Numbered from the stretch's first letter, positions 4,928 to 42,472 are shown. The stretch: DNA of 64,000 nucleotides from Candidatus Omnitrophota bacterium (GCA_050250375.1 JBFWOS010000002.1:205547-269546), one strand, 5' to 3'. Notes: generated by a model from the sequence alone, not told the origin. A program made the numbers and translations.

Positions 4928-5128
4928 ATGCCAAATCCAAAACGACAACATTCTAAACAACGCGGACGCAAACGCCGCACTCACCAGAAGATCGCCGAGA
5001 ATTTCGGGGCGTTATCAACGACCGGCAGCACGATGGGGTACAACCACCGGGTTGATCCTGTCACCGGGATGTACAAAGGCCAGCAGATTGTAGCCATTAA
5101 AGTAAAAGAAAAAGAAGAAAAAGCCTAA
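4928..5128 (+). CDS. rpmF: 50S ribosomal protein L32
   Basis: MPNPKRQHSKQRGRKRRTHQKI is the L32 N-terminal signature. Confidence 0.9.
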   Translation: MPNPKRQHSKQRGRKRRTHQKIAENFGALSTTGSTMGYNHRVDPVTGMYKGQQIVAIKVKEKEEKA

Positions 5129-5307: not shown

Positions 5308-6294
5308 ATGAAAATAGTCGTCGACGCTATGGGCGGCGATTTTGCCCCGCAGGCTGTCATTGAAGGCGTTATCCAGGCGGTCAAAGAATTTGATGCCAAA
5401 ATCACTTTAGTCGGTCTGGAAGATCAGATCAGAGCCGAGCTCAACAAACACAACTGTTCACCCGACCTTTTTGAAATTATCCATGCCCCGGAAGTGGTCG
5501 GCATGGACGAACCGGCCAAAACACCCATCCGCACCAAAAAACAATCCTCCATTTCAATCGGGATCAATCTGCTTAAGAAACCCGGTTATGACGCGTTTAT
5601 CAGCGCCGGGAATACGGGCGCGGTTGTCGCGGCGTCCACCATCTTTTTGGGAATGCTGGAAGGGGTTGAACGGCCCGCGATCGGACTGGTGATCCCCACG
5701 TTAAACAAATTTTCATTTATCATTGATGTCGGCGCCAATTCCGAGTCCAAACCGGAACATCTGCTGCAGTCTTCCCTGATGGCCAAGATTTACGCCCGTG
5801 AGGTGCTGGGCATTGAATCACCCACGATCGGTCTTTTGAATATCGGTGAAGAGGCCGGCAAAGGGGGCGGGCTGGCCAAGGAGGCCTACAAATTGATGGA
5901 AGGCCGGCTTAAGAATTTTTCGGGCAATATTGAAGCGAACGAAGTGTATACCGGTAAAAGCGACTGCATTGTGTGCGACGGGTTTGTCGGAAATGTCTTG
6001 TTGAAGGTGTCGGAAGGTCTGATGGAATCGGCCCAGAAACTGGTGAAACGGGAAGTCATGAAAAATCCGCTGGCGATGGCCGGGGCTTTTTTAATGAAGC
6101 TGGGGATGGGAGATTTAAAAAAACTGGTCGATTATTCGGAATACGGCGGCGCCCCTTTACTGGGTGTCAACGGTGTGGTGATGATCGGTCACGGCCGGTC
6201 TTCGCCCAAGGCGATTAAAAACGCGATTAAGGCTACTATGCGCGAGGTCGAACACGATATTTTGTCGGCGATGATTAAAGAGATGAAAGAATAA
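5308..6294 (+). CDS. plsX: phosphate acyltransferase PlsX
   Basis: MKIVVDAMGGDFAPQAVIEG... canonical PlsX N-terminus; 328 aa; rpmF-plsX-fabH synteny. Confidence 0.9.
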   Translation: MKIVVDAMGGDFAPQAVIEGVIQAVKEFDAKITLVGLEDQIRAELNKHNCSPDLFEIIHAPEVVGMDEPAKTPIRTKKQSSISIGINLLKKPGYDAFISAGNTGAVVAASTIFLGMLEGVERPAIGLVIPTLNKFSFIIDVGANSESKPEHLLQSSLMAKIYAREVLGIESPTIGLLNIGEEAGKGGGLAKEAYKLMEGRLKNFSGNIEANEVYTGKSDCIVCDGFVGNVLLKVSEGLMESAQKLVKREVMKNPLAMAGAFLMKLGMGDLKKLVDYSEYGGAPLLGVNGVVMIGHGRSSPKAIKNAIKATMREVEHDILSAMIKEMKE

Positions 6295-6368: not shown

Positions 6369-7346
6369 ATGAAAAACATCGGCATACTTGGATTAGGGCA
6401 TTGTTTGCCCGAGCGGATTTTGACGAATCATGATCTGGAGAAGATGGTTGATACCTCCGATGAATGGATCACCACCCGCACCGGCATTAAAGAACGGCGG
6501 ATCGCAGACCGTTTGCAGAATAACAGCGACCTGGCCAGCGGCGCGGCTTTGGAAGCGGTGAAAAATGCCGGGATTAAACCGGAAGACATCGAACTGATCA
6601 TCGTGACGACGATTTCGCCGGACAGTAATTTTCCTTCCGTGGCCTGCCTGGTCCAGAAAATGATCGGAGCGAAGAAGGCCGCGGCCTTTGATATCAGCGC
6701 GGCCTGTTCGGGGTTTTTGTACGGAATCACGACCGCGAAACAATATCTCGCCGGAGGGTTATTCAAAAATGCCCTGGTTATTGCCTCTGAAAAAATTACA
6801 AATTTAATCGACTGGAACGACCGGGACACTTGTGTCTTGTTTGGTGACGGCGCCGGGGCCTGTGTGCTGGGTGAAGTTGCTCCCGGAAAAGGGATCATTT
6901 CGGATTTTATGCACGCCCAGGGGGAATTCGGTGAATTGATGTCGGTCGTTTCCGACGGCCGTGACCCGATGGACCAGAAACGCGAGTTGATCCGCCTGCC
7001 GTATGTGGTTATGCAGGGCAAGGAATTATTCAAGATCGCCGTTAATTCGATGGCTATCGCGGTGGAAGAGTCGTTGAAAAAAGTCGGCCTGGGTCTGCAT
7101 GATATTGACCTGGTTGTTCCTCACCAGGCGAATGACCGGATCATTTCGGCCGTGGCCAAAAAACTGGACGTCCCGAAAGAAAAGTTTTTTATCAATATTC
7201 ACAAATACGGCAACATGTCGGCCGCCTCCATCGCCGTTGCCCTGTACGAAGCCCAGGAACAAGGCGCTTTGAAAGATGGTGATACCATCGCGCTGGTGAC
7301 TTTCGGTGCGGGTTTGGTCAGCGCGGCGAATATTGTGAAGTGGTGA
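6369..7346 (+). CDS. fabH: 3-oxoacyl-ACP synthase III (KAS III)
   Basis: GLGHCLPERILTNHDLEKMVDTSDEWITTRTGIKERRIA; AACSGF active-site Cys; HQANDRI and GAG motifs. Confidence 0.9.
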   Translation: MKNIGILGLGHCLPERILTNHDLEKMVDTSDEWITTRTGIKERRIADRLQNNSDLASGAALEAVKNAGIKPEDIELIIVTTISPDSNFPSVACLVQKMIGAKKAAAFDISAACSGFLYGITTAKQYLAGGLFKNALVIASEKITNLIDWNDRDTCVLFGDGAGACVLGEVAPGKGIISDFMHAQGEFGELMSVVSDGRDPMDQKRELIRLPYVVMQGKELFKIAVNSMAIAVEESLKKVGLGLHDIDLVVPHQANDRIISAVAKKLDVPKEKFFINIHKYGNMSAASIAVALYEAQEQGALKDGDTIALVTFGAGLVSAANIVKW

Positions 7347-7460
7347 TCTTGTGCGGTTTTAGTGCTGAAATGGTTTAATGTGTAAGGTTTAAGGTTAAAA
7401 TTAATTAAAAATAATCAAAGAAAAACTTCACATCCCCCTAGTTTTTCAAGGAGGGTGTGT

Positions 7461-7826
7461 ATGCAAAATAAAATATTTGAATTTGATTTTGAACGGCTGG
7501 ACGTATATCAGAAATCTCTGGAATTTTCAGACAAGATATTCCGATTGACACAAAAGTTCTCTTTTTATACTCAATTTTCATTAGGAGATCAGTTTCGTCG
7601 AGCAGGGTTATCAATTTGTAACAATATCGCGGAAGGTAGCCGAAAAGAAGGTAAGTCAAAGAAACAATTTTATGGATATGCGTTAGATTCATGTCGTGAA
7701 TGTATCCCGATGATTTCTATAGCAGGATTACAGGGGCAAATCACTCAGGATGAGAAAAATCAATTAAGATTTTCTTGTGAATCGATTAGCCGAATGCTGT
7801 TTCGATTAATACAATCTGTTATTTAA
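7461..7826 (+). CDS. four-helix-bundle protein (TIGR02436 / 23S rRNA-intervening-sequence protein family)
   Basis: ERLDVYQKSLEFSDKIFRLTQKF...CNNIAEGSRKEGKSKKQFYGYALDSCRECIPMI matches the characteristic motif set of this family. GGAGGG RBS upstream of ATG 7461. Confidence 0.7.
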   Translation: MQNKIFEFDFERLDVYQKSLEFSDKIFRLTQKFSFYTQFSLGDQFRRAGLSICNNIAEGSRKEGKSKKQFYGYALDSCRECIPMISIAGLQGQITQDEKNQLRFSCESISRMLFRLIQSVI

Positions 7827-7859: not shown

Positions 7860-8786
7860 ATGAAAACTGCGCTGATTTTTCCAGGCCAGGGCGCTCAAGT
7901 TGTCGGCATGGGGCGTGAATTTTATGATTCGTCCCCGGAGGCCAGAACTATTTTTGACCAGGCGGACACGATTGTTCCCGGACTTAAGGACGTTATTTTT
8001 AACGGTCCCCAGGAAAAACTGACGTCAACCGCATTTTGCCAGCCGGCCATTTTTACGGTCAGTATGGCGGCGTTAAGCGCGCTAAAGGCGCATCCGGTAT
8101 ACAAAACCATGGACGTGCAATTTACCTGCGGTTTGAGCCTGGGTGAATATTCGGCCTTGTGCGCCGCGGAGGCCTTGTCGTTTTCTGAGACGCTGAAACT
8201 TGTTGGTGTGCGTTCCTCCCTGATGGAAGAAGCCACTGGATTACGCGAAGGAGCCATGGCCGCGGTCCTCGGTTTCGAAAAGGAACGTCTGATAGAGATT
8301 TGCCGGGAAACAGGGGCGGAAGTCGCGAATTTTAATTCACCGGATCAAATCGTCATTACCGGTGAATCCGAAAAAGTAAAAGCCGCCTCTGCCAAAATAT
8401 CCGAAGCCGGGGCGAAACGGGTTATCCCTCTTGAAGTGAGCGGGGCTTTTCATTCCAGTCTGATGCAGTCGGCGGCGCACCAGTTCAAAGACCATCTGCG
8501 TTCGGTCGACCTGAATGACCCGGTTTTTCCCATCCTGAGTAATGTGGACGCCGTTCCGACGTCCAATACCGCCCATATCCTGATGAACCTTTCCAAACAG
8601 ATCACTTCATCCGTCCAATGGGTGGATTCGATCAACACGATCGCAGCGGCCGGGGTTACGAACTTTCTGGAGATCGGGCCGGGTACGGTTCTTAAAGGGC
8701 TGATCCGAAAGATTAACCGGGATTTAAACGTTCATAATATCCAGGTACCGAAGGATATTGAACAGCTTTCTGAGAACCTGCGGTAA
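7860..8786 (+). CDS. fabD: malonyl CoA-ACP transacylase
   Basis: MKTALIFPGQGAQVVGMGREFYD and GLSLGEYSAL (active-site GxSxG). Confidence 0.9.
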   Translation: MKTALIFPGQGAQVVGMGREFYDSSPEARTIFDQADTIVPGLKDVIFNGPQEKLTSTAFCQPAIFTVSMAALSALKAHPVYKTMDVQFTCGLSLGEYSALCAAEALSFSETLKLVGVRSSLMEEATGLREGAMAAVLGFEKERLIEICRETGAEVANFNSPDQIVITGESEKVKAASAKISEAGAKRVIPLEVSGAFHSSLMQSAAHQFKDHLRSVDLNDPVFPILSNVDAVPTSNTAHILMNLSKQITSSVQWVDSINTIAAAGVTNFLEIGPGTVLKGLIRKINRDLNVHNIQVPKDIEQLSENLR

Positions 8787-8935
8787 AAAGGCACAGGTCA
8801 CACGACACAAGTCACAGAATCAGTTGGTTGGGATGGCTGAGTTAGTGCCCTTTGCGTTAGCCCCCCAGTCCGATGAGCAATTAACTCAATAACCCCAACA
8901 AACGCAAGAACCTATAAAAATCCCCACAAAACCCC

Positions 8936-8966
8936 TTGACCTTCAATCAGTTATAAAGTTATACTA
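8936..8966 (+). promoter_or_regulatory. sigma-70-like promoter candidate for the HTH/hotdog/KS/AAR operon
   Basis: TTGACC (8936-8941), 17-nt spacer, TTATAC/TATACT; lies in a 270-bp intergenic gap. Confidence 0.3.
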
Positions 8967-9054
8967 ATATCCTGTAAGTAAATCGGTTATAAGGGTGATT
9001 AAGGCCGCATAATTTGAGATAATGTAAAATTTTGTCATTTAAGATGGTATTAAA

Positions 9055-9264
9055 TTGATCCGCGGAGCGAGCATGGAACATCCGGAAGATCCTGTATTAA
9101 CAATCAAAGATGTCGCAAAATATCTGAGCGTGCACACGTCCACGGTTTACCGTTACGCCCAGCAGGGGGTGATCCCGGCCTTCAAGATCGGGTCGGACTG
9201 GCGTTTTTCCCGCAAACATATTGATCAGTGGATTGAACAGAAGGTAAACGAAGGCAGGACTTGA
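9055..9264 (+). CDS. helix-turn-helix DNA-binding protein, excisionase/MerR-like family
   Basis: LTIKDVAKYLSVHTSTVYRYAQQGVIPAFKIGSDWRFSRKHIDQWIE is a classic HTH_17/excisionase-family signature. Confidence 0.7.
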   Translation: MIRGASMEHPEDPVLTIKDVAKYLSVHTSTVYRYAQQGVIPAFKIGSDWRFSRKHIDQWIEQKVNEGRT

Positions 9265-9740
9265 ATCGTTTTTCGAAAACGCAGGTGAAATCAATGCTGC
9301 TCGAAGAAATTAATATTGAAAATATTCTCCCGCAGGCGCATCCTTTTATCATGATCGACCGCGTCGTTGATTTTAAAAAGGGAGAATACCTTACGGCCGT
9401 CAAGAACGTAACGGCGAACGAATGGTTTTTTAAAAATGCCGGACCGATGCCGTATCTGCCTGAGACACTATTGATCGAAGCCGCCGCGCAGACGGCTGTC
9501 CTGTTTGCCCGGTTGACGCTGATCGAAAATCATTCCGGGAATTATTTATTTGTTCTGGGGAGGATCAATGCCGAGTTTGAGGGCCGCGCCGGCGTTGGAG
9601 ACCAGGTCCTTCTGAAAACTTCAAATTTTAAGATGATGAAAATGAATGGTTTTATTGATGTCGGGATCGAATCAGAGACCGGGGCCATCGCGAAACTGAA
9701 CATATTTTACAGCCTTATGGAGAATAAACCGCATGGTTGA
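9261..9740 (+). CDS. FabZ/FabA-like hotdog-fold (3-hydroxyacyl-ACP dehydratase family) protein, atypical active-site region
   Basis: AHPFIMIDRVVDF...NEWFFKNAGPMPYLPETLLIEAAAQTA parallels FabZ HRYPFLLVDR...NEPFFQGHFP..PVMPGVLQIEALAQ, but the HFP histidine position reads AGP. Overlaps the KS start by 8 nt. Confidence 0.6.
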   Translation: MNRFSKTQVKSMLLEEINIENILPQAHPFIMIDRVVDFKKGEYLTAVKNVTANEWFFKNAGPMPYLPETLLIEAAAQTAVLFARLTLIENHSGNYLFVLGRINAEFEGRAGVGDQVLLKTSNFKMMKMNGFIDVGIESETGAIAKLNIFYSLMENKPHG

Positions 9741-10992
9741 GATTTTATCGAAAGAAAGCCCATCGCAGAACGGCCGCCGTGTTGTCGTGACCGGCCTGGG
9801 CGTTGTCTCGTCCATCGGAATCGGCTGGCAGGAATTCTGGAAGAATTTGATCGCGGGTAAGTCGGGGATATCAAGAATTACTTCTTTTGATGTGTCCATG
9901 TATGAAAGGAAATATGCGGGAGAAATAAAAAATTTTGACGCAAATCTATATATTAATCGAAAAAAAATAAAATTTCTAGGTAGGTCCTCTCAATTTGCCA
10001 TTACAGCTGCAAAGTTGGCGCTTGAAGATTCGAATTTTGAAGTTAATAGTACAAATAGTAAGAATATAATTGCGAGCATAGGTATGACCATGGCAGAAAT
10101 GACAGAGTTAGAAAAATATAATGACAGTATTTATACGCAAAATTGTACAATTAATGGTAATGATGTAGCTTTAAAATTCCCTGCATTCTCAATAAGTTCA
10201 AATGTAGCTCGTGAATTAGGTTTAAATGGAAAAAATATAGTTTTTTCGAGTGCATGCGCGGCCGGAAATTACTCGATATGTTATGCATATGATCAAATAA
10301 AGAATTCGACTGCTGACTATGCATTGGCTGGAGGATCTGATAGTTTTTCAAGAGTTGTTTTCACTGGTTTTAGTCGTCTTTTTGCTATCGCAGATAAATT
10401 TTGTCAACCATTTGATAAAAATAGGAGTGGAATGATTCCTGGGGAAGGATCAGCTATTTTGTTTTTAGAAAGTTACGAAAGCGCAGTAAAACGAAATGCT
10501 AAAATATATGCGGAAATTCTAGGTTTTGGTATGTCATGCGATGCGTTTCACATGACGATCCCCAGCGTTGAATCTGTATCTAAAGCCATTATGAAGTGTT
10601 TAATGAATTCAGAGTTGTCAATAGAACAGATAAATTATATTTGTGCTCACGGGACAGGAACTAAAGAAAATGATGAAACTGAAGTAGCTGCTGTAATTAA
10701 AGTTTTCAAAAATAGGTCGAGATATATTCCAATGAGTTCAATCAAATCTATGTTAGGACATACGATGGGGGCTGCATCGGCCTTAGAGGCAGTTTCTTGT
10801 TGTTTATCTTTGGATTGTCAAGTAGTTCCTCCAACGATTAATTTTACGGAAAAGGATCCCCTCTGTGATATAGATTGTGTTCCAAATAAGGCGCGAGAAG
10901 CTACACTAGAAATAATCCTAAACAATTCGCAGGCGTTTGGAGGCAACAACGCTTGTGTTGCACTTAAGACTTTGAAACAGAATACAATTTAA
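9733..10992 (+). CDS. beta-ketoacyl-ACP synthase (KAS I/II type)
   Basis: VVVTGLGVVSSIG; active-site SSACAAG; CAHGTGT and GHTMGAAS His motifs; 419 aa. The first ~50 codons are GC-rich and the rest AT-rich. Confidence 0.85.
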   Translation: MVEILSKESPSQNGRRVVVTGLGVVSSIGIGWQEFWKNLIAGKSGISRITSFDVSMYERKYAGEIKNFDANLYINRKKIKFLGRSSQFAITAAKLALEDSNFEVNSTNSKNIIASIGMTMAEMTELEKYNDSIYTQNCTINGNDVALKFPAFSISSNVARELGLNGKNIVFSSACAAGNYSICYAYDQIKNSTADYALAGGSDSFSRVVFTGFSRLFAIADKFCQPFDKNRSGMIPGEGSAILFLESYESAVKRNAKIYAEILGFGMSCDAFHMTIPSVESVSKAIMKCLMNSELSIEQINYICAHGTGTKENDETEVAAVIKVFKNRSRYIPMSSIKSMLGHTMGAASALEAVSCCLSLDCQVVPPTINFTEKDPLCDIDCVPNKAREATLEIILNNSQAFGGNNACVALKTLKQNTI

Positions 10993-11014
10993 GAATACCA
11001 ATATAACAATTAGT

Positions 11015-12133
11015 ATGAAAAAAAATATTGCAGGGATGATTTTTCATCCACCAAATCTTGAAACTATTGATTCTGCTATTCGCTCATTATATCCAATGGC
11101 TAATACCGTTTATTCTAGGATATCTCCCTTTAGAAAAAAGGATATGTTGCGCAAAATTGCACCATTTAGATTGTTTTATTTGCGTAATATTCAATTTGCC
11201 CAAAATACAGGAATAGATTTAGTAGGCTATATGCTTCCTATGTTGCCAGAGCAAATGTTGATTTCTTCCGAGAATGCGAAAAAGAAAATAAATGAAATTA
11301 TTCATAAGGCTACCAATTTTGGCGTAGACGTAATAACCTTAGGTGCATTTACTTCTATCGTTACTAACCAAGGATTGGATGCACTAACTAGTAATCGAAT
11401 TAATATAACTAGCGGGAATACGTGTACTGCTGCCTTATGTATTCAATCGGTGTTAAAGTTGGTAAGAGTTTTAGAAATTGAGTTAACAAAATGTAATGTG
11501 GCAATCATAGGCGCGACTGGGGATATTGGTAGTATATGTGCGAAAGTATTAGTACGAAAATCTAAGAACGTATTCTTGTGTTCTCGAAATATTTCCGATT
11601 CCCAAGATTGGATTAAATTATTGAAAACTGAATTAGGTGAAAAAATCGTTGTTACGCAAGATATTAATAAATCGATTAAGAACGCAGATATAATAATTTG
11701 TGCTACAAGTTCCATTTCACCATTATTTGATATAAATGAGTTTTTACCCGGGACGATTGTTTGTGATTTATCAATGCCTCCAAACGTTGGAAAGAATCTA
11801 AAAGAGTTAAGAAGGGATATCTTGATATATGAAGGGGGGAGGGCTCAAATTCCAAATTATAAAGACATTCAAAGTAACGTGTGGAGCCATTTGTTTCCCA
11901 AGAATTCTATTTATGGATGTTTTATTGAATCGATAATCTTATCATTGGGGAACAAATTAGAGAATTTTTCCATTGGAAAAGGAAATATTACAGAAGAGAA
12001 GATTGATGAGATATATAATCTTGGTCTTAAATATGATATTGATATTGCTGATTACGGATTTGAGAATTATATATATACTGAAAAAGACTTAAAAGAATTT
12101 AAATTTAAAAGGAAAAGTTATGTTGGATCTTAA
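11015..12133 (+). CDS. long-chain acyl-[ACP] reductase (AAR)-family protein (aldehyde-forming)
   Basis: GVDVITLGAFTSIV / TSGNTCTAALCIQSV / VAIIGATGDIGSICAKVL / YGCFIESI align with cyanobacterial AAR (GIDISALGGFTSII / TTGNTHTAYVICRQV / VAVVGATGDIGSAVCRWL / HCFDID catalytic Cys) as recalled from memory. 372 aa. Confidence 0.65.
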   Translation: MKKNIAGMIFHPPNLETIDSAIRSLYPMANTVYSRISPFRKKDMLRKIAPFRLFYLRNIQFAQNTGIDLVGYMLPMLPEQMLISSENAKKKINEIIHKATNFGVDVITLGAFTSIVTNQGLDALTSNRINITSGNTCTAALCIQSVLKLVRVLEIELTKCNVAIIGATGDIGSICAKVLVRKSKNVFLCSRNISDSQDWIKLLKTELGEKIVVTQDINKSIKNADIIICATSSISPLFDINEFLPGTIVCDLSMPPNVGKNLKELRRDILIYEGGRAQIPNYKDIQSNVWSHLFPKNSIYGCFIESIILSLGNKLENFSIGKGNITEEKIDEIYNLGLKYDIDIADYGFENYIYTEKDLKEFKFKRKSYVGS

Positions 12134-14321
12134 TTTTATTGCAATATTTACATTTACAATTTCTTTGGTTCTGGGATATTTATTTCTTTTCATTCTCCTA
12201 AAAAATATAAAATCACAAATCAATAGATCATTTTCATTAGTCTGTTTAAGCGCTGCGATTTGGTTGTTGTTTTACTCATTTGCATACTTCTCAAATGACA
12301 AAGTTATGGCTAATCTTTGGTTTAGAATTGGGTATTCAGGAGTAATATTTATATCTGTTACGTATCTGAATTTTGCTTGTAATATTCTCGATTTTAGAAA
12401 AATTAGACATTTAGTTTGGGGGGCATACTTAACAGGATTTATTTTTATTTTGGTGATACACATTTCTGATTTATTAATAGCAGGTGTTCATGAGTATTCG
12501 TGGGGGTTTTATCCAAAAGCTGGAAAAATTCATCCGTATTTTTTAATTTTCTTTTTTGGCTTAGTTAATATTGCAACAGGTTTAATTGCGTATAACTATT
12601 TTTATCTAATGAGAAAAACTACGGCATCAATTCGAAAACAACAATTAAAGTATATACTCTTAGCATTTACTATTTTTACGTTTGCTTCAATGGACTTCAT
12701 TCCCAATTATGGAATTAACATTTATCCATTAGGGTTTATTCCAGTTTTATTTTTTATATTGATAATAACATATAGCGTTGTTAAATATCGTTTGCTAGAT
12801 ATTTCTTTGGTCATAACGCGGACAAGTATTTTTTTGGTTGTGTACTGTTTTGTGTTAGGGATACCATTCAATATTGCCTTCGGCCTACAAGATTTCTTAA
12901 AAAGTATTTTTCGTGAGGAATGGTGGATTTTTCCGTTGGTTGTGTCCACCGTTTTGGCGACCATCGGACCCTATATTTATATCTATATCCAAAAAAAGGC
13001 TGAGGACAGGATTCTTCAGGAGCAGCGTCAGTACCAGGCGACGTTACGGCAGGCCTCATTAGGCATGGGACAGATTAAAGATTTAAAACGGCTTTTGAAC
13101 CTGATTGTCCATGTGGTGACCCGCGCGGTCAAGATCGAGAATTGTAAAATATTTCTCCGGCATGAAGATTCCAAACGGTTTGTCCTGAAGGCTGTAAAGG
13201 GAGAGAAGAACAATGTCGATGAGAAGAATCATCTGGGGTTTGATTCCCTTTTGGTCAACTATTTTAACCAGGTCAAAGAACCGATCGTTTATGAGGAGGT
13301 CAAGCAAAGACGCACGGATATCGGAGGCGAGGGATTGGGTGAGATCGAGGCGATCCTGGAGAAAATGGATGCGGCCCTGGTCGTTCCAAGTTTTATCGAA
13401 CAGAAATTAATCGCTATTATTTCCCTGGGTAAAAAGCGTTCAGGAAAGCTTTATACGCACGACGACCTGGCGGTCTTTGCCATCCTGGCCAACCAGTCGG
13501 CCCTGGCGATTGAAAACGCCCAGTTTTACGAAGATATGAAACGCACCCATGTCCAGCTTTTGAAGGCGGAAAAGATGGCAACCGTGGGGACCATGGCCGA
13601 CGGCTTGAGCCATCAGATCAACAACCGCCTGCACGCGATGGGTTTCATCGCCGGTGATTTGATTGATACCATCCGGCACGGAAAACAAAACGGCCATCCT
13701 CCGAAAACAAAAGAACTTCTGGAAGAGATCGAAAGCGGTCTGGAACGGATTCAGCAGAATGTCAAACACGGCGGGGAAATCGTCGGCGGTCTTTTGCGTT
13801 ATACCCGCAAGGGGGAAAAAGGATTTGCTCCGGTCGAATTGTCCCAGCTTTTGAAGTCCGCCCTTGAGATGGCCCAGTTCAAGATCAAGGTGAATATGCT
13901 CGACATTGAGAGGCATTTTGATGACAGTATCCCGAAGATCAAAGGGAATTTTACCCAGCTGCAGGAAGTATTTTTCAACCTGATTGATAATGCCTACGAC
14001 GCCATGATGCAGCGTAAGGAAGAACTTCAGGAAAAGGGGTATAAGCCGCATCTGGATATTTACGCCCGGGAGGTTAACGCCAAAATTGAGATCATCATCC
14101 AGGATAACGGGATGGGGGTCAAGGATTCGGATATGCATAAACTGTTTACCCCGTTTTTTACCACCAAGGCAACGAGCAAGAAGGGCACGGGGCTGGGGCT
14201 TTACGTCATCCGGCAGATCATTGAGGATAACCACGGGGGGAAAGTCAATTTTTCTTCAAAATTTAAAATAGGTTCGGAAACTCAGATTATATTGCCGATC
14301 GCCCTGGAAAAGACAGCCTAA
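12120..14321 (+). CDS. sensor histidine kinase with N-terminal 7TM sensor domain and GAF domain
   Basis: Multi-TM N-terminus; GAF-like middle; HisKA MATVGTMADGLSHQINNRL; HATPase N/G boxes (IDNAYDAM, DNGMGV, GTGLGL). Confidence 0.85.
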   Translation: MLDLNFIAIFTFTISLVLGYLFLFILLKNIKSQINRSFSLVCLSAAIWLLFYSFAYFSNDKVMANLWFRIGYSGVIFISVTYLNFACNILDFRKIRHLVWGAYLTGFIFILVIHISDLLIAGVHEYSWGFYPKAGKIHPYFLIFFFGLVNIATGLIAYNYFYLMRKTTASIRKQQLKYILLAFTIFTFASMDFIPNYGINIYPLGFIPVLFFILIITYSVVKYRLLDISLVITRTSIFLVVYCFVLGIPFNIAFGLQDFLKSIFREEWWIFPLVVSTVLATIGPYIYIYIQKKAEDRILQEQRQYQATLRQASLGMGQIKDLKRLLNLIVHVVTRAVKIENCKIFLRHEDSKRFVLKAVKGEKNNVDEKNHLGFDSLLVNYFNQVKEPIVYEEVKQRRTDIGGEGLGEIEAILEKMDAALVVPSFIEQKLIAIISLGKKRSGKLYTHDDLAVFAILANQSALAIENAQFYEDMKRTHVQLLKAEKMATVGTMADGLSHQINNRLHAMGFIAGDLIDTIRHGKQNGHPPKTKELLEEIESGLERIQQNVKHGGEIVGGLLRYTRKGEKGFAPVELSQLLKSALEMAQFKIKVNMLDIERHFDDSIPKIKGNFTQLQEVFFNLIDNAYDAMMQRKEELQEKGYKPHLDIYAREVNAKIEIIIQDNGMGVKDSDMHKLFTPFFTTKATSKKGTGLGLYVIRQIIEDNHGGKVNFSSKFKIGSETQIILPIALEKTA

Positions 14322-14461: not shown

Positions 14462-14824
14462 ATGTCAAAACTGTTGATTGTCGATGATGAAACCGATATC
14501 CGCGAGTTCGCCAAAAGTTTTTTTAAGAAACGCGGGATAGAAGTCTCAACCGCCGGGGGCGGCAAAGAAGCGCTTCGTGCCGTCGAGAAAAATAATCCGG
14601 ACCTGATCCTGCTGGACATCACCATGGAGGATATGACCGGCGTGGAGGTGCTGAGGGCCTTGCGGGAAAATAAAAACGATGTCAAGGTGATCATGGTCAC
14701 GGGCATCGAAAACGAAGAAACAGTTAATGAAGCCAACAGCTGGGGGATCAAGGGATACATCCACAAACCCCTGATCCTGGAAGAACTCGAACAAATCGTA
14801 CTCGCGGAATTAAATGACAGTTAA
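14462..14824 (+). CDS. single-domain response regulator (CheY-like receiver)
   Basis: KLLIVDDETDIRE...LILLDITMEDMTGVEVL...IMVTG...KPL receiver motifs with phospho-acceptor Asp. Confidence 0.85.
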   Translation: MSKLLIVDDETDIREFAKSFFKKRGIEVSTAGGGKEALRAVEKNNPDLILLDITMEDMTGVEVLRALRENKNDVKVIMVTGIENEETVNEANSWGIKGYIHKPLILEELEQIVLAELNDS

Positions 14825-16019
14825 GCAGCCGATGATCAAAGTTGACTACAAAAAAGAGCTTGAAACAGCCAGCAAGGGCATGATCATGATCCATGATCCG
14901 AAACTGCTGATCAAGCTGATCGTGCGGATGATTGTAAGAAAACTGCGCATCAAACACGCCGCCATGATCCTCTATGAATCCGATTTTGACCGTTATGTTC
15001 TGAATATTTCCCGTGGAGAAACAGGGCACCGTATCCCGGTGGGTTTTACCAAGTTCAGCAAACAAAGCCCGATCATCAAATTATTCATTGATAAAGAATA
15101 CCGGCGCATTATCCAGGGGCGTAATGCCATCGTGGCTGAGGATATCAATCGGATTATTTGGAGGGAAAATGTCGTTGATAACGGCACCGGCAGCGGAGTA
15201 AAGGACCTCCTGCATAAAGTCAGCGAACAGATGGATGCGCTGAATTCGATTGCGTGCGTGCCGGCCTTTTACCAGGATAAATTGATGGCCGTCCTGTTGT
15301 TAGGGAATAAACACGACGAGTCCCGGTTTGCCCAGGAAGAACTGAATTTTTTTGCCGCCCTGGCCTCGGACGCCGCGATGGCGATCCGCAACGCGCAGTT
15401 ATTTAATGATCTCAGCCGCGAGGCCAAACGTAATCGCGAATTGTTTATCCAGACGATCATCGTCCTGAGTTCCACCATTGAGGCCAAAGACAAATACACC
15501 CACGGCCACACGGAACGGGTCACCAATTATTCCGTGTCTATTGCCCGCCAGATGACCGCCAACGGGAGCGCGGATTTTGATAACACTTTTTTTGAAAATA
15601 TTTATATCTCCGGTTTGCTTCATGATATCGGCAAGATCGCCATCCCCGAAAAGATCCTCAACAAGACCGGCCATCTTACGGAAGAAGAATATGAGATCAT
15701 GAAAAAACATACCATCAAGGGGGCGGAGATGATCCGTCCGCTTAACCTTCCGAAGGATTGCATCGACGGAATCAAACATCATCATGAACGCTTTGACGGG
15801 TGCGGTTACCCGGACGGGCTCATCGGTGGGGCGATTCCGATCACCGCGGCCATCATGGCCGTGGCCGATTCCTATGACGCCATGACTTCATCCCGTCCTT
15901 ACCGCAAAGGTATGAAAAAAGAAGACGCCCTCAATGAAATCAAGAAAAACGCAGGGACCCAGTTTAATCCCATCCCGGTCCGCGCCATGGTTGAGTTATA
16001 TAATCAGGGAAGGCTTTAG
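14814..16019 (+). CDS. GAF-domain HD-GYP phosphodiesterase (c-di-GMP)
   Basis: HTERVTNYSVSIA...LLHDIGKIAIPEKIL...HHERFDGCGYPDGL = HD and GYP signatures. Confidence 0.85.
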   Translation: MTVKQPMIKVDYKKELETASKGMIMIHDPKLLIKLIVRMIVRKLRIKHAAMILYESDFDRYVLNISRGETGHRIPVGFTKFSKQSPIIKLFIDKEYRRIIQGRNAIVAEDINRIIWRENVVDNGTGSGVKDLLHKVSEQMDALNSIACVPAFYQDKLMAVLLLGNKHDESRFAQEELNFFAALASDAAMAIRNAQLFNDLSREAKRNRELFIQTIIVLSSTIEAKDKYTHGHTERVTNYSVSIARQMTANGSADFDNTFFENIYISGLLHDIGKIAIPEKILNKTGHLTEEEYEIMKKHTIKGAEMIRPLNLPKDCIDGIKHHHERFDGCGYPDGLIGGAIPITAAIMAVADSYDAMTSSRPYRKGMKKEDALNEIKKNAGTQFNPIPVRAMVELYNQGRL

Positions 16020-16096: not shown

Positions 16097-17743
16097 TCAA
16101 CCCAATTGACTTACAGGCAATTCAATGATTATTTCCGTCCCGATGCCGATTTTACTTTTAACTAAGATTTTTCCGTGATGGTTTTCAATGATTCCTTGGA
16201 CGATCGCCAGCCCTAGTCCGGTGCCGAAGTCTTTATTGGTAAAGAAAGGGTCGAATATCTGTTTGAGGTTTTCTTCAGCGATACCCACACCGGTATCTTT
16301 GATGGTGATTTGTACGATTTTATCGTGTTTGACAGAGGATTTGATTTGTTTGGGCAGCACCGCGGCCCCGATAAATAACTGCCCGCCGTCCGGCATGGCG
16401 TCAACCGCGTTGAGCATGATATTCAGCAGGGCCTGATGGATCTGGTTCGCGTCGAGTCTTAACGTCAACTGATCATCGAGGTTGATATTTCGCGAACACT
16501 GCACGTGACGGCTTAAGAAATTGTTGCTGAGGGTGTCGATGCTCTGATTCAGTAATTTTTTAACGGAAACATCGGTAAATTTGGGAGGGTTTGGTTTGGA
16601 GTACTCCATAAGCCGGTTGACGAGTTCACTGATCCGTTCAACTTCTTTGGCCGTAAGCCGTGAATATTTATTAATAAATTCACGATCGTTATGCCGGGCG
16701 GGCAGATATTCATTAAAAGTCTTGATCACCGTCAACGGATTCCGGATTTCATGAGCAATTCCTCCCGCCAGTGTGGCAAGGGTTTTGTATTTCTCAGTTT
16801 GGGCGACTTCTAGCCTTAATTTTTCGTTTTCGAGGGCGATTTCTTCTTGGGTTCCTCTAAAAAAGTATCTTTCTATATACTGTTGAATTCTATGTTGTAA
16901 AGGAATAAAAATTATTCCAAGAATAAATGCTGTAAATATATTAAAAAAGGGAGAATCATAGTTTAATTTAATTTTCAATGATTCACCAAAAGAAATAATT
17001 ATTAAAAGATAGAATAATGATATTACCGAGATCACTAAAGAATATATGAATCCTTTTTTAAGCGCTATAGTAATGTCCATCAGTTTGTATTTGACAGTTG
17101 CATATGCGTATATCCCGATAAATATCGTTGAAGGGAAAAATCCAACTGGATAGAATTCAAAACCATAATTTGGTATAAAATCAAGAATTGCAAAGTTCAA
17201 AATGAACATAGCCACCAATAGATATTTTATTTGGTTTCTTTCGCTCCATTCAGAAGAGTTAATCAAGACTTCAATGAAAACTTTATAAAGTGTTATCATC
17301 GGAATTATAAAGAAAATTAAGTAGAGTGGGTGGAGCCTTCCAGCAACGGGATAATAACCCCAATAGTAATTGTGGTAATAGTTCTGAATAATAAGGTTTG
17401 TATTAATTATTAAGAAACTAAGCGATATAAAGATAAAGTAAAATAATGGAAGTAGAATCTTATATTTTCTGGAGTTAAGAAGTTCAATGGTGTGGTGAAA
17501 ACAAAAAATTGGGATAAAAGTGATAAAACAATAAGCGGCTTTTAATAGTACAACGATTAAAGAATGGTGTTTTTTGTCTAGATTTAAAACTAGTGCATAG
17601 AGAAAGAACCATGCCGCGATCGAGAGACAAACAAAAAAAAATGTTATATTTTTTTTAGATTTTTTATTCTTACTTAATACAATAAATCCGAAGAAAATCG
17701 CGACTGTGGTACATACTAAGAGAGGGAGGCTATATAAATTCAT
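16097..17743 (-). CDS. sensor histidine kinase with N-terminal 7TM sensor domain
   Basis: HisKA LAGGIAHEIRNPLTVI; HATPase LNAVDAM, DTGVGI, GTGLGLAIV; AT-rich multi-TM N-terminus paralogous to 12120..14321. Confidence 0.85.
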   Translation of the reverse strand: MNLYSLPLLVCTTVAIFFGFIVLSKNKKSKKNITFFFVCLSIAAWFFLYALVLNLDKKHHSLIVVLLKAAYCFITFIPIFCFHHTIELLNSRKYKILLPLFYFIFISLSFLIINTNLIIQNYYHNYYWGYYPVAGRLHPLYLIFFIIPMITLYKVFIEVLINSSEWSERNQIKYLLVAMFILNFAILDFIPNYGFEFYPVGFFPSTIFIGIYAYATVKYKLMDITIALKKGFIYSLVISVISLFYLLIIISFGESLKIKLNYDSPFFNIFTAFILGIIFIPLQHRIQQYIERYFFRGTQEEIALENEKLRLEVAQTEKYKTLATLAGGIAHEIRNPLTVIKTFNEYLPARHNDREFINKYSRLTAKEVERISELVNRLMEYSKPNPPKFTDVSVKKLLNQSIDTLSNNFLSRHVQCSRNINLDDQLTLRLDANQIHQALLNIMLNAVDAMPDGGQLFIGAAVLPKQIKSSVKHDKIVQITIKDTGVGIAEENLKQIFDPFFTNKDFGTGLGLAIVQGIIENHHGKILVKSKIGIGTEIIIELPVSQLG

Positions 17744-18111
17744 TTATTTAATAGTTTTCGTATTGATTCAAGTATTTCCTTCGAATCAAACGGTTTGGTG
17801 ATGTATCCGTCCGCGCCTAGTTTTTTAATCTCACTGAGCAATTCAACCGACTGATATCCTGTTACAATGATGACTTTCTGCCCGGGATGTTTTTCTTTAA
17901 TTTCCTTAAGTGTATCCAGGCCGTTTTTGTTGGGCATTTTGATGTCCAGTAAGACCAAGCCGATATCGCCGGCGTTTTTCAGGCAGTCGAGACACTGATC
18001 GCTGTCTTCCGTCAGGATTAGTTCATAATGCTCTTCCAGGATCAGTCTCAGTGATTCGCGGATCCCCTCCTCATCATCACAGATCAGAATTTTTTTTGTG
18101 TTGGTGCTCAT
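17740..18111 (-). CDS. single-domain response regulator (receiver)
   Basis: KILICDDEEGIRE...LVLLDIKMPNKNGLDTL...IIVTGY...KPF; 4-nt ATGA overlap with the kinase. Confidence 0.85.
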   Translation of the reverse strand: MSTNTKKILICDDEEGIRESLRLILEEHYELILTEDSDQCLDCLKNAGDIGLVLLDIKMPNKNGLDTLKEIKEKHPGQKVIIVTGYQSVELLSEIKKLGADGYITKPFDSKEILESIRKLLNK

Positions 18112-18149
18112 TTACTGCTCCTTCTTAGGTTCATTAAGTTTGTGGGGTG

Positions 18150-18701
18150 CTACAAAGCCACCGGGGTTGCTATAATCAAAATTTTTGATGCGGTCACGTT
18201 TTCATTATGAAAATAATGTTTCATGGAAGCGTCGAAATAAATCGACTGCCCCTTGGACAAGACATAAGGGGTCTCGCCAATAATTATTCTTACAGTGCCT
18301 TCCAGGACTAAAATGAATTTTTCCGTTCCGGTTTTATTTTGCTCAATGTTTGTCTTGCCGCCGCTTTCAAGGGTCAGCAGGGTGGGCATCATCTTTTTTT
18401 TCAAAACATTGGTGGTCAGTATTTCAAACGACGCCTTTTCACCGTGGATAAAGATATCTTTTTGTGAGTCCTGGTCAGTCAGGTCGACTTTTTTTTCTTC
18501 ATTGATTATGTCCGCGTAAAGCTGAAGGACATCAATTCCCAGCGCCTTGGCAATCGCCATATGAGAATCGACGGTGCCGGTCATTTTGAGGTTTTCCATC
18601 CGGCTGAGAGTGGCAATCTGCACATTGCTTTTTTCAGACAGTTCGACCAAGGTCATCCCTTTGGATTTACGAATTTCTTTCAGCTTCTTTCCTATATACA
18701 T
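18150..18701 (-). CDS. XRE-family HTH + cupin domain transcriptional regulator
   Basis: N-terminal LKEIRKSKGMTLVELSEKSNVQIATLSRMEN (HTH_3); C-terminal cupin-like beta region. Confidence 0.75.
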   Translation of the reverse strand: MYIGKKLKEIRKSKGMTLVELSEKSNVQIATLSRMENLKMTGTVDSHMAIAKALGIDVLQLYADIINEEKKVDLTDQDSQKDIFIHGEKASFEILTTNVLKKKMMPTLLTLESGGKTNIEQNKTGTEKFILVLEGTVRIIIGETPYVLSKGQSIYFDASMKHYFHNENVTASKILIIATPVAL

Positions 18702-22158: not shown

Positions 22159-22297
22159 ATATATACCGGCGCCCCCGCCGTCACTCGCCAAACCGTTCCC
22201 CCTTCAGAATCAATTAAATCAATTTATCGTGCCACGATACCCCCCGTATACTCGTGTCGTCTCAGTTAACAGGATTATTACGTTTGAGGAGGAGAGT

Positions 22298-38847: not shown

Positions 38848-38935
38848 GGAGAGGTGGCTGAGCGGTTGAAAGCGGCAGTCTTGAAAACTGTTGAGGGGCA
38901 ACCCTTCCAGAGTTCGAATCTCTGCCTCTCCGCCA
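38848..38935 (+). tRNA. tRNA-Ser (anticodon UGA)
   Basis: GGAGAGG acceptor stem pairing with CCTCTCC+G+CCA; anticodon loop CTTGAAA (anticodon TGA); long variable arm TGAGGGGCAACCCTTCCAG; T-loop GTTCGAATC. Confidence 0.85.
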
Positions 38936-41005: not shown

Positions 41006-42472
41006 ATGTCCGAATATCCACACAAAAAGCTGATCACAGGATCGATTGAAAACGCATCCATCATGCGCAAGTTTACGGTCCTTTTTCTTCTTATGTCGAT
41101 GGTGCCGATGCTGGTGCTGTTCTATTTTTATTGGAATTTCAGAACGACCGGAAACCTGATGATTACCGAGACGTCATTTAATGTCGCCTTGATCTTTATT
41201 GTCTGCGGGGTTACCTTAGGTTATGCCTCGATGCGTAATGTTGTGCAGGCCCTGATCGATCTGAACCGGGCGAACACCAAGGCCCTGCAGCGGGTGTTGA
41301 CCCCTGAAAAGGTTGATGAACTGGCGAACGAACAAAATGAGATTACGGCTTTGGCGCAGTCTTTTAAGGCCATCACGGAACGGCTGGAAGAAAATGTCCG
41401 CAGCCTTGAGCTGGCCAAGAAAACACTGCATTCGGTCATGTCCCGGGTCGGCCACGGGATTTCCAACATGCAGAATATTGATAATTTCCTGGAATTGATT
41501 TTGGAAACCGTCATTAAGGCTTTATCCGGAAAGACCGGGATTATTCTGGTTTATGATAAAGACACGCAGCAGTTAGTCGTGAAAATGGCTTTCGGGGTTG
41601 ATGTAGAGAAGAGCACCAATATCCGGCCGATTAAAATTTCAGAAGGTTCCCGCATCAAGGAAATTCTCAAGACGAAAGGGCCCCGGGTGTTTCAGGAAAC
41701 GTTCCCGGAGTTTACGTCCAAGTATTACAAGAAATTTGTCGATGGCCCGTTCATTTGTACTCCGTTATTAGTCAAGGATAAACCAAAGGGGCTGATGATT
41801 GTCAACCATAATGATCCCAACGGAACATTTGATAATGACGAAATCAACCTGTTTTTCAACCTCGCCTCGCAAACGGCCGTCGCGATCGAGAATTCTCTTC
41901 TCAGCCATGATATTGAATCGACCTATTTTGAGACCATTTCAGCCCTGGCATTGGCGGTTGACGCCAAGGACAGGTATTCCCGCGGGCACCTGGACCGGGT
42001 CGCCCACTATTGTGTGATGATCGCCAAGAAAATAGGGCTGGATGAAGATGATGTCAAGACATTACGCGACGCGGCCCGTCTGCATGACCTGGGGAAAATC
42101 GGCATCCCGGATGAGGTCCTTTGCAAACCCGGCCCGTTGACCGACCAGGAATGGATCCTGATGAAACGCCATCCGGAAATCGGGGAGACAATCATCAAGC
42201 CGATCACATCCCTGCGGCATTTGTGCGATCTGGTCAGGCATCATCATGAAAAGCTGGACGGTTCCGGTTATCCTGATGGACTAAAGGCGGACGAAATTTC
42301 GCCTCTGGTCCGTATCATGACGGTGGCGGATATTTATGACGCGATTACAACCGACCGGCCGTACCGCGACCGGATGAGTCAGGAACAGGCCAGCGCTGAA
42401 TTGCGGAAAATGAAAGATCAGCTGGACCAGGATATCGTTGAGTCCTTTATTGAAGCGTTGAATGAGGCATAA
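41006..42472 (+). CDS. membrane-anchored GAF-domain HD-GYP phosphodiesterase
   Basis: TM segments, coiled-coil/HAMP-like linker, GAF-like domain; HD-GYP: RGHLDRVAHYCVMIA...LHDLGKIGIPDEVL...HHHEKLDGSGYPDGL. Confidence 0.85.
   Translation: MSEYPHKKLITGSIENASIMRKFTVLFLLMSMVPMLVLFYFYWNFRTTGNLMITETSFNVALIFIVCGVTLGYASMRNVVQALIDLNRANTKALQRVLTPEKVDELANEQNEITALAQSFKAITERLEENVRSLELAKKTLHSVMSRVGHGISNMQNIDNFLELILETVIKALSGKTGIILVYDKDTQQLVVKMAFGVDVEKSTNIRPIKISEGSRIKEILKTKGPRVFQETFPEFTSKYYKKFVDGPFICTPLLVKDKPKGLMIVNHNDPNGTFDNDEINLFFNLASQTAVAIENSLLSHDIESTYFETISALALAVDAKDRYSRGHLDRVAHYCVMIAKKIGLDEDDVKTLRDAARLHDLGKIGIPDEVLCKPGPLTDQEWILMKRHPEIGETIIKPITSLRHLCDLVRHHHEKLDGSGYPDGLKADEISPLVRIMTVADIYDAITTDRPYRDRMSQEQASAELRKMKDQLDQDIVESFIEALNEA

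Follow-up and report, generated by a model that had tools for sequence, protein, structure and literature searches.

A putative accessory acyl-chain module with an AAR/PigE-type thioester reductase and adjoining sensor-kinase genes in Candidatus Omnitrophota

In this work we analysed a 64-kb stretch of Candidatus Omnitrophota DNA (hereafter the window), in which four consecutive genes at positions 9055-12133 encode a helix-turn-helix (HTH) protein, a FabZ-like hotdog protein, a ketosynthase and a reductase with the fold of the cyanobacterial acyl-acyl carrier protein (acyl-ACP) reductase, AAR. The reading that we favour, and to which we give roughly an even chance, is that these genes belong to a pared-down accessory acyl-chain module that would release a specialised ACP-bound chain as an aldehyde under two-component and cyclic di-GMP (c-di-GMP) control. 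A preliminary description of the locus had proposed a cyanobacterial-type reductase with a dedicated ketosynthase and an atypical hotdog protein, replacing fabG-acpP-fabF after fabD. All four open reading frames (ORFs) and their families are present, on the plus strand, with E values of 8.6e-19 to 1.1e-45 for the best matches, and the portrayal of the ketosynthase and of the hotdog protein is upheld; the cyanobacterial label has to be abandoned, and the replacement of fabG-acpP-fabF is unproven. The sensor kinase and HD-GYP genes that adjoin the reductase, the kinship of the ketosynthase and hotdog protein with anammox Cluster I and the fuller modules of other Omnitrophota are absent from that description.

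The window was extended by 6 kb to the left and 10 kb to the right (80 kb in all), the flanks being reached by exact-protein look-ups. The window ORFs (n=40) were scanned with Pfam, and the key ORFs also with NCBIfam. A scan of one genome per species yielded at least 514 reductase relatives, of which 80 were kept; their loci (designated L001 and so on) were annotated first by phmmer searches with the window proteins and with AcpP, FabG and FabI of E. coli, and afterwards by Pfam and NCBIfam. It should be noted that loci were grouped by architecture and not by the label of the metagenome-assembled genome (MAG), since some labels (Planctomycetales, Rhodocyclaceae) may be binning errors.

The acyl-thioester reductase

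The last of the four genes (11015-12133, plus strand) encodes a predicted AAR-fold NAD(P)H-dependent acyl-thioester reductase of 372 aa, which matches the AAR equivalog TIGR04058 with an E value of 1.6e-28 and the PigE N-terminal domain with 1.1e-45. Its AlphaFold (AF2) model has a pLDDT of 95 and presents the three-domain AAR fold; in a Foldseek search the model retrieved AAR first (6JZY/6JZU, E 8e-27, TM-scores of 0.78/0.84 to 6JZY). The GATGDIG motif at residues 166-172 is identical in AAR, the TSGNT at residues 132-136 corresponds to TTGNT in AAR, and Cys302 is aligned with AAR Cys294 and with PigE Cys296, so the motifs and the cysteine cited in the preliminary description are indeed found. 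Among 106 reductase homologues Cys302 is invariant, the cores of both motifs are invariant or nearly so, and Arg191 is conserved. This arginine, located after beta-2 in an 'SRN' that matches the 'ARN' of AAR, suggests NADPH as the cofactor.

Judged by its sequence, the reductase is not an orthologue of cyanobacterial AAR and groups instead with the PigE thioester-reductase domain. It is 24-26% identical to AAR and reaches 100.1 bits against TIGR04058, for which the cutoff is 449.7. The best NCBIfam match was the PigE model NF053554, with 156 bits over profile positions 52-330 (the full-length cutoff of this model is 850 bits), and the best sequence matches among solved structures were PigE (4ppm, 89 bits) and then AAR (6jzq, E 2.3e-19). 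In a neighbour-joining tree the window reductase and those of L001, L003, L005, L012, L016 and L019 formed one clade (89/100 bootstraps), which joined other ketosynthase-linked Omnitrophota reductases and the PigE N-domain (79/100), apart from AAR; these support values are approximate, as the tree includes a single AAR sequence and the distance correction overflowed in some replicates. The protein ends after the reductase fold, without the fused class III aminotransferase of PigE, and no aminotransferase is encoded in the window. An unrelated Rossmann family, such as shikimate dehydrogenase or glutamyl-tRNA reductase, had been named beforehand as the finding that would speak against the AAR assignment. 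These families match only the Rossmann domain (~1e-11), against 1e-28 to 1e-45 for the full-length AAR/PigE-N matches, and the fold search places AAR first, so we rejected them.

The superfamily is large, with about 1,650 sequence clusters at E <= 1e-30 in a profile search, and it includes fusions that join HTH_17, PilZ and lipid-binding SRPBCC domains to the reductase (P0189, P0173 and P0184; the architecture of P0189 is HTH_17-PilZ-SRPBCC-reductase). In AAR and in the PigE N-domain the acyl group is transferred onto the cysteine and the thioester is reduced to the aldehyde (PMC8341465), and elsewhere members of the family are always found with ACP-linked acyl metabolism. An aldehyde or alcohol is a plausible product of the window enzyme, as far as can be judged from homology.

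The ketosynthase and the hotdog protein

The ketosynthase gene (9733-10992, plus strand; 419 aa) matches the N and C domains of ketoacyl synthases with E values of 5e-38 and 2e-31, respectively. The triad Cys175-His306-His343 and Lys338 are intact and do not vary among 46 homologues. With 394 bits for the FabF model TIGR03150 (cutoff 493.75) and 375 bits for the subfamily model (cutoff 387), the protein misses both cutoffs. Its nearest solved relative is 9s5h_B (415 bits, 48% identity), followed by the ishigamide ketosynthase Iga11 (PDB 6KXD, 323 bits), while FabFs reach at most 273 bits. Iga11 was also the top match in Foldseek (TM-scores of 0.91/0.95), in a library that predates 9s5h. These matches characterise the enzyme as amxFabF2-like or KS-alpha-like and not as a housekeeping FabF.

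We infer that the amxFabF2/amxFabFmut heterodimer of Brocadia fulgida is represented by 9s5h on its own and by 9s5i together with amxACP (bioRxiv 10.64898/2026.05.19.726425). Residues Cys170, His303, His340, Glu349 and Asn394/395 of 9s5h_B correspond to the published Cys165, His298, His335, Glu344 and Asn389/390 at a constant offset of +5; furthermore, chain C of 9s5h is the best match of the triad-less ketosynthase homologue (KS') of other Omnitrophota, and one of the chains in 9s5i is an ACP with kinship to amxACP.

The comparison with locus L020 was informative as regards paralogy. In this locus the module lies a few kb from a canonical fabG-acpP-fabF set, whose products score 338 bits (FabG, cutoff 298), 117 bits (AcpP, cutoff 70) and 658 bits (FabF, cutoff 494), while the module ketosynthase and the module ACP score 420 and 51 bits. 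By its scores the window ketosynthase matches the L020 module paralogue and not the canonical FabF, and is a specialised paralogue, in agreement with the dedicated ketosynthase of the preliminary description. Since the L020 module sits beside the canonical genes, the window module is probably accessory rather than a replacement of core fatty acid synthesis (FAS). In L016 the module follows pilus genes, and the proposal that it stands in for fabG-acpP-fabF is unproven.

The hotdog protein (9294-9740, plus strand; 148 aa, ORF open from a TTG at 9261) is a FabZ/amxFabZ-like protein, with E values of 9e-12 in Pfam and 3e-19 with the NCBIfam FabZ model, TIGR01750, against which it scores 65.5 bits (cutoff 155). 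Among its best structural relatives are the FabZ of E. coli and the amxFabZ of K. stuttgartiensis (8AYD; PMC10139942). Where FabZ has 'GHFP' with the catalytic His, the window protein has 'KNAGP', and the catalytic Glu is kept in 'LIEAAAQ'; the protein was thus rightly called atypical. In the family alignment all relatives (30/30) lack the His and have a variable loop in its place, with a shared 'FPE(T)LLIEAAAQ' and 12 invariant columns, among them that of the glutamate (E62), whereas the three canonical FabZs included retain 'GHFP'. In the fuller Omnitrophota clusters, the gene at this position retains the His, and its nearest solved relative is amxFabZ (136 bits, FabZ 104 bits).

Because the His is lost, the hotdog protein could only bind acyl-ACP or give the Glu half of a shared heterodimer site. 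The ApeI/ApeP dehydratase of aryl-polyene synthesis has just one active site in its heterodimer (PMC8041823), and so provides a precedent for a protomer that gives only part of an active site; a match to the ApeP-like family PF22817 was found on an identical protein (P0257) and on orthologues. No second hotdog gene that could encode a partner protomer is present in the window.

Relatives and module types

Three arrangements of the ketosynthase-linked module were found in related loci. The window type (L001, L003, L005, L012 and L019, 41-74% identity) has the order L32-plsX-fabH-(fabD)-[HTH]-His-less hotdog-ketosynthase-reductase-kinase-receiver-HD-GYP; L019 is without the hotdog gene, L003 has an inserted S-adenosylmethionine (SAM)-dependent methyltransferase, and L005 a CrtI-like gene and a second seven-transmembrane (7TM) kinase. 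L016 is of an intermediate type, ACP-KS'-His-less hotdog-ketosynthase-reductase-kinase, and stands away from plsX. The full type (L006-L011, L013-L015, L017, L018, L020, L021 and L024) comprises genes for an HTH protein, KS', the reductase, a FabG-like ketoreductase, an ACP, the ketosynthase and a CrtI/phytoene-desaturase-like FAD enzyme, together with a 7TM kinase, receivers and HD-GYP proteins, and sometimes a His-containing dehydratase. The KS' of this type lacks the Cys, the His and the second His of the triad, and is similar in this to a chain-length factor (CLF). In addition, there are loci with the reductase and without a ketosynthase (L023-L040 and others), in which an SRPBCC-reductase fusion is followed by at least one 7TM kinase.

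The hotdog, ketosynthase and reductase genes are under purifying selection. Relative to L001, dN/dS is 0.10-0.12 for the three (0.10 for the hotdog gene) and 0.02-0.07 for the flanking genes, with dS of 1-2, that is, near saturation.

The methyltransferase of L003 (7624-8775, 383 aa, third-position GC content (GC3) 0.22) lies between the His-less hotdog and ketosynthase genes. Anammox FAS clusters also include SAM methyltransferases (PMC9821293), and by this analogy the gene hints at chain methylation in some lineages.

Outside Omnitrophota, two further arrangements of AAR-like genes were observed. About 30 loci of a Bacteroidota type among L047-L082 (e.g. L049 7202-10804; L047 8068-12976), from Flagellimonas, Lutimonas, Algoriphagus, Rhodocytophaga, Chitinophagaceae and Flavobacteriaceae, carry a conserved operon with a GNAT acyltransferase, a protein similar to aldehyde-deformylating oxygenase (ADO), an AAR-like reductase, a DUF3419 (BtaA-like) protein and at times a fatty-acid desaturase. 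The ADO-like di-iron protein, encoded next to the reductase, has all six metal ligands, matches PF11266 with 56 bits and finds solely ADO structures in the PDB. From these matches, the operon looks like an AAR/ADO-like pair outside cyanobacteria, of which we found no description in the literature searched. In the Fibrobacterota-type loci (L037, L039, L044, L045 and L062; e.g. L037 8845-14678), the AAR-like gene is accompanied by SRPBCC(+PilZ), a dedicated ACP, an AMP-dependent ligase and a thiamine diphosphate (ThDP) enzyme. This set recalls the PigD/PigE logic, in which ThDP chemistry on a thioester would be followed by reductive release.

The adjoining signalling genes

The preliminary description ended the operon at 12133. 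This boundary has to be moved, as the unit runs on, on the plus strand, through a 7TM (HisKA_7TM)-GAF-histidine kinase identified with Pfam (12120-14321) and a stand-alone receiver domain (14462-14824) to a GAF-HD-GYP protein (14814-16019; HD_5 132 bits, motif HHERFDGCGYP) that presumably acts as a c-di-GMP phosphodiesterase. The unit closes with this protein, and the gene after it is convergent. The start of the kinase gene overlaps the reductase stop by 14 nt, and the kinase is 93% identical to its L001 counterpart.

Among the 38 Omnitrophota-type loci that could be assessed, the reductase is followed within 400 nt by the start of a 7TM kinase gene in 24, and such a kinase closes the cluster in 9 more (33/38 in total). 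Taking kinases as ~7% of genes, the binomial P is ~1e-18, a rough value that ignores shared ancestry. The signalling trio, with receiver and HD-GYP, recurs in L001, L003, L004, L012 and L016, and in 10 loci the homologous clusters begin with an HTH_17 gene. From this arrangement, the reductase and the kinase are probably translationally coupled, and signals from the membrane or from c-di-GMP are probably linked to what the module produces. We found no report of signalling control of lipid aldehyde production in the AAR/PigE reductase family in the literature searched.

Further signalling genes are present in the vicinity. A second 7TM histidine kinase (HisKA_7TM + HisKA + HATPase), a receiver and an HTH_3-cupin regulator are encoded at 16097-18701 on the minus strand, convergent with the module, and L003 has a receiver and HTH-cupin pair at the same relative position. 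A second GAF-HD-GYP protein is encoded at 41006-42472, 25 kb downstream, which together with the first one indicates a rich repertoire for c-di-GMP turnover.

Proposed function and alternative explanations

In the accessory module that we propose, the ketosynthase would prime or extend a particular ACP-bound acyl chain with malonyl-ACP from the upstream FabD, and the ACP, the ketoreductase and any CLF-like partner would be encoded elsewhere in the genome. The His-less hotdog protein would bind the chain or pair with a catalytic FabZ. The reductase would then take the acyl group onto Cys302 and reduce the thioester with NAD(P)H, giving a free aldehyde that could be reduced to the alcohol, used for an envelope or ether lipid, or serve as a signal. 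The HTH protein and the kinase, receiver and HD-GYP set would tie the module to membrane or c-di-GMP signals. What the analysis shows directly are the folds, the catalytic residues, the orthology to specialised and not housekeeping paralogues, the synteny and the purifying selection; substrate, aldehyde product, hotdog function and regulation are deduced from these. As regards chain length, the characterised relatives prefer short-to-medium chains (amxFabFhet ~C8, amxFabZ C6-C8 and PigE a branched C10 thioester), and by analogy a medium-chain product is possible, although this is only a hint.

Several observations weigh against this proposal. An ACP, a ketoreductase, an enoyl reductase and a CLF partner were all unseen within the 80 kb. 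The hotdog protein alone cannot, from its sequence, dehydrate by the known FabZ mechanism. The amxFabF2 protein alone is inactive in vitro and needs amxFabFmut, and a negatively charged helix-loop-helix is said to disfavour homodimers (bioRxiv 10.64898/2026.05.19.726425). In the window ketosynthase this element has a net charge of -3, as in 9s5h_B, and in its clade the values span 0 to -4 by a crude charge count. An adjacent triad-less partner (amxFabFmut/CLF) and a dedicated ACP are present in L016 and in the full-type relatives, and none was found in the window or the flanks; by analogy with the anammox enzyme, the ketosynthase may be inert without an unseen partner. Furthermore, no aldehyde-consuming enzyme is present nearby, and the three genes evolve 2-3 times faster (dN) than their neighbours and sit in an odd island of low GC3, described below.

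A first alternative, which we consider distinctly unlikely, is that the hotdog protein and the ketosynthase are divergent housekeeping FabZ and FabF proteins that replace fabG-acpP-fabF, the reductase being unrelated to them and part of the sensor-kinase unit. The genes directly follow plsX-fabH-fabD in six related loci, there is no other FabF or FabZ in the 80 kb, the FabF model is still the best match of the ketosynthase (394 bits), and many Omnitrophota have the reductase and the kinase without a ketosynthase. However, the loss of the hotdog His in all 30 family members means that this protein cannot be the sole dehydratase. The ketosynthase, for its part, is nearer to amxFabF2 and Iga11 than to any FabF, and its orthologues in the modules of L020 and L015 occur there together with a true FabF. 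In L016 the hotdog-ketosynthase-reductase trio is not near plsX and is accompanied by an ACP and a CLF-like gene of its own, and in the window the HTH gene and a promoter-like site stand between fabD and the module. If it were nevertheless correct, the locus would represent an unusual rewiring of an essential pathway.

Another explanation of similarly low probability concerns the chemistry. The reductase might use its Cys and nicotinamide otherwise, either in reverse, as an acylating aldehyde dehydrogenase that salvages aldehydes to acyl-ACP for PlsX, or for a terminal modification like that of the putative terminal amidation domains (TADs) of the carmabin pathway. The TADs were the next-ranked relatives in Foldseek after AAR and share the fold and the Cys, with another proposed outcome (bioRxiv 10.1101/2024.10.28.620694); the plsX gene upstream and the missing aldehyde-consuming enzyme would also fit. 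Nevertheless, both biochemically supported relatives, AAR and the PigE N-domain, make aldehydes from thioesters (PMC8341465), in the Bacteroidota branch the partner of the reductase is an ADO-like enzyme, for which an aldehyde would be required, and TADs are fused to nonribosomal peptide synthetase modules, none of which is found here.

Finally, we hold it very unlikely that the locus is a decaying remnant, making no product, of a fuller system like the anammox Cluster I that has lost ACP, CLF, ketoreductase and oxidoreductase and whose dehydratase is inactivated: the genes missing relative to L014, L020 and L016, the lost His, the raised dN, the AT-rich codon usage and the inactivity of amxFabF2 without its partner (bioRxiv 10.64898/2026.05.19.726425) would agree with it, but synteny and intact ORFs are preserved in at least six lineages (down to 41% identity), dN/dS is ~0.1, the catalytic triad of the ketosynthase does not vary, nor do the Cys and nucleotide motifs of the reductase, and the His-less hotdog family is itself conserved. 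Pseudogenisation was rejected in view of this dN/dS and of the intact catalytic residues.

Comparison with known systems

As we mentioned before, the window reductase resembles AAR (EC 1.2.1.80; 6JZQ/6JZU/6JZY) in the fold, GATGDIG, T(T/S)GNT, the position of the catalytic Cys and the arginine after beta-2. It differs from it in the low identity, in belonging to another phylum, in its ketosynthase, hotdog and sensor-kinase neighbours and in the lack of an ADO: PF11266 has no match among the window ORFs or in the flanks. The PigE N-domain, from the MAP pathway of prodigiosin biosynthesis, acts on a medium-chain acyl thioester and shares with the window enzyme the best profile and sequence match, the aligned Cys and the grouping in the tree; however, PigE has a fused class III aminotransferase and 'GYPGSIC' where the window protein has GATGDIG, and the window is without an aminotransferase or a ThDP enzyme.

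The anammox Cluster I (KustE3603-3608) encodes amxACP, amxFabZ, amxFabF2, amxFabFmut, a phytoene-dehydrogenase homologue and a B12-radical SAM enzyme, and has been described as exclusive to ladderane producers (PMC10139942; bioRxiv 10.64898/2026.05.19.726425). In the full Omnitrophota type the ACP, the dehydratase, the ketosynthase and KS' each have the anammox counterpart as nearest solved relative (KS' 9s5h_C, 422 bits; dehydratase amxFabZ 7QV0/8AYB, 136 bits; ACP amxACP 7QV0_D), and genes similar to phytoene dehydrogenase (CrtI) are present in L005, L014 and L020. The Omnitrophota clusters differ from Cluster I in the added ketoreductase, AAR-like reductase, HTH gene and 7TM kinase, and no radical SAM gene was found in any annotated Omnitrophota locus. 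The window itself has neither a radical SAM nor a phytoene dehydrogenase gene, lacks the CLF-like partner and the ACP, and has a His-less FabZ homologue. By gene content it is the most reduced form, with only an amxFabF2-like ketosynthase and a His-less amxFabZ/FabZ-like protein. It has been reported that antiSMASH 'ladderane' calls occur in Omnitrophota and in other non-anammox MAGs (PMC9902471), and sequence kinship with Cluster I probably explains such calls.

A wider proposal, which we regard as doubtful, is that these clusters constitute a non-ladderane Omnitrophota sister of Cluster I, with aldehyde or alcohol release by an AAR/PigE-type reductase coupled, physically or through regulation, to a 7TM sensor kinase and c-di-GMP (PilZ fusions, HD-GYP), of which the window would be the minimal form. 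If it were true, bacteria of the PVC group would have a way of making fatty aldehydes, alcohols or ether-lipid precursors under the control of signals, and the clusters would give a tractable handle on the ancestral products of Cluster I enzymes.

Highly reducing type II polyketide synthase (PKS) and aryl-polyene systems (Iga11/Iga12; ApeO/ApeC, ApeI/ApeP) are comparable in the Iga11 matches, in the ketosynthase/CLF logic of the relatives and in the ApeP-like hotdog protein. Unlike them, the window has no CLF, ACP, ketoreductase, thioesterase or aryl starter genes, and it would use release by an AAR-type reductase, which those systems lack. The mycobacterial HadAB/HadBC and KasA/KasB combine a dedicated elongating ketosynthase with a non-catalytic hotdog subunit that tunes the chain-length specificity of its catalytic partner. 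These proteins are used here only as a working analogy; their phylum and products differ from those of the Omnitrophota module, and a specific kinship in sequence was neither looked for nor found.

An AAR/PigE-type reductase in an amx-type FAS/PKS-like module next to a 7TM kinase has no experimentally characterised equivalent, and we found no description of the module in the literature searched on Omnitrophota fatty-acid synthesis, on non-cyanobacterial AAR homologues, on ladderanes and acyl-ACP reductase, or on ADO in Bacteroidetes. What is unfamiliar is not the chemistry but the phylum, the connection with the anammox cluster and the coupling to signalling. Experimental knowledge of AAR-type reductases comes from cyanobacterial alkane synthesis and prodigiosin biosynthesis, and here a third, large branch would be built into the type II FAS/PKS-like modules of an uncultured phylum. 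Relatives of Cluster I without radical SAM enzymes could help to separate the ladderane-specific parts from a general chassis for specialised lipids, and the association of the reductase with 7TM kinases and HD-GYP or PilZ domains suggests second-messenger sensing or control of lipid aldehyde production. The family could also offer new thioester reductases for the production of fatty aldehydes and alcohols.

Locus organization and upstream context

The module is preceded, on the plus strand, by an L32 (rpmF) ORF (4928-5128; named from the PF01783 match of its L001 orthologue), plsX (5308-6294), fabH (6369-7346), a gene for a 23S-IVP four-helix-bundle protein (7455-7826) between fabH and fabD, and fabD (7860-8786; TIGR00128, 320 bits, cutoff 261); plsX, fabH and the 23S-IVP gene were identified with Pfam and NCBIfam. 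The order plsX-fabH-fabD is also found in L001, L003, L005 and L019, and these genes are a housekeeping context that can supply malonyl-ACP. That fabG, acpP and fabF do not follow them was confirmed with tblastn and Pfam in the window and the flanks: tblastn with the E. coli proteins detected no acpP, fabG, fabI or second fabZ in the window, Pfam found no ACP, short-chain dehydrogenase/reductase, ADO or aminotransferase among the 40 ORFs, nor other lipid genes than those described here, and the flanks contain no further FAS genes. The statement that neither ADO nor ACP is adjacent is in line with this result. As PlsX, FabH and FabD all require ACP, acpP must be encoded elsewhere.

A gap of 268 nt (8787-9054) separates fabD from the HTH gene. 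It contains a sigma-70-like promoter candidate on the plus strand (8936-8965, TTGACC-18 nt-TATACT, 10/12 positions), the best of the region, in which such sites are no more numerous than expected from shuffled sequence. This candidate suggests that the genes led by the HTH gene form a separate transcription unit downstream of fabD. The promoter/terminator scan gave no convincing terminator after fabD, and the search for riboswitches and RNA families in this gap and the whole window returned only a chance-level sRNA match (E 0.82) and one tRNA.

The HTH gene (9055-9264, plus strand; PF12728, 68 bits, 8.6e-19) encodes an HTH_17 (excisionase/MerR-like) DNA-binding protein, a presumed regulator, of 69 aa, or 63 aa from the ATG at 9073, which is 94% identical to its L001 counterpart. 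The overlapping stops and starts of the preliminary description were confirmed in part. The hotdog and ketosynthase genes overlap by 8 nt and the receiver and HD-GYP genes by 11 nt, in addition to the reductase/kinase overlap; an overlap between the HTH and hotdog genes arises only with the TTG start at 9261, and homologues and two gene callers choose the ATG at 9294, which leaves a spacer of 29 nt.

Low-GC3 island and additional observations

Positions 9910-12840 (plus strand) form an island with GC3 of 0.17-0.37, against 0.58 +/- 0.08 in 26 other window genes. GC3 falls from ~0.60 about 60 codons into the ketosynthase gene; it recovers in the kinase gene after ~240 codons, where the 7TM domain ends. 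The same contrast is found in L001 and L003, relatives at 69% and 45% identity, with the extra methyltransferase of L003 included. Since it is shared with both, the island is old and maintained and not the trace of a recent transfer, and recent horizontal transfer was rejected as the cause of the dip. A weaker dip occurs in the 7TM part of the second kinase (16097-17743).

The 23S-IVP gene has a GC3 of 0.27, and its L001 orthologue shows a weak bAvd-like match. Copies located elsewhere in L005, L012 and L016 suggest that this small gene is mobile or multi-copy.

Other genes of the window are related to toxins or mobile elements. At 22229-31344 there is a 2,827-aa SpvB/TcdB/FG-GAP/RHS-repeat toxin-like protein followed by a 211-aa ORF without a Pfam match (GC3 0.33), possibly its immunity protein, and L001 has a similar RHS/YD-shell locus downstream of the module. 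The single tRNA gene (38848-38932, Rfam 59.5 bits) is followed, 3.6 kb further, by a phage-integrase-family gene (42529-43458), and this region may be an integration hotspot. At ~57700-58300 (L085 5968-6540), between an SdrD-like protein and a DUF3313 gene, the NCBI record presents a HigB-like toxin and HTH antitoxin pair.

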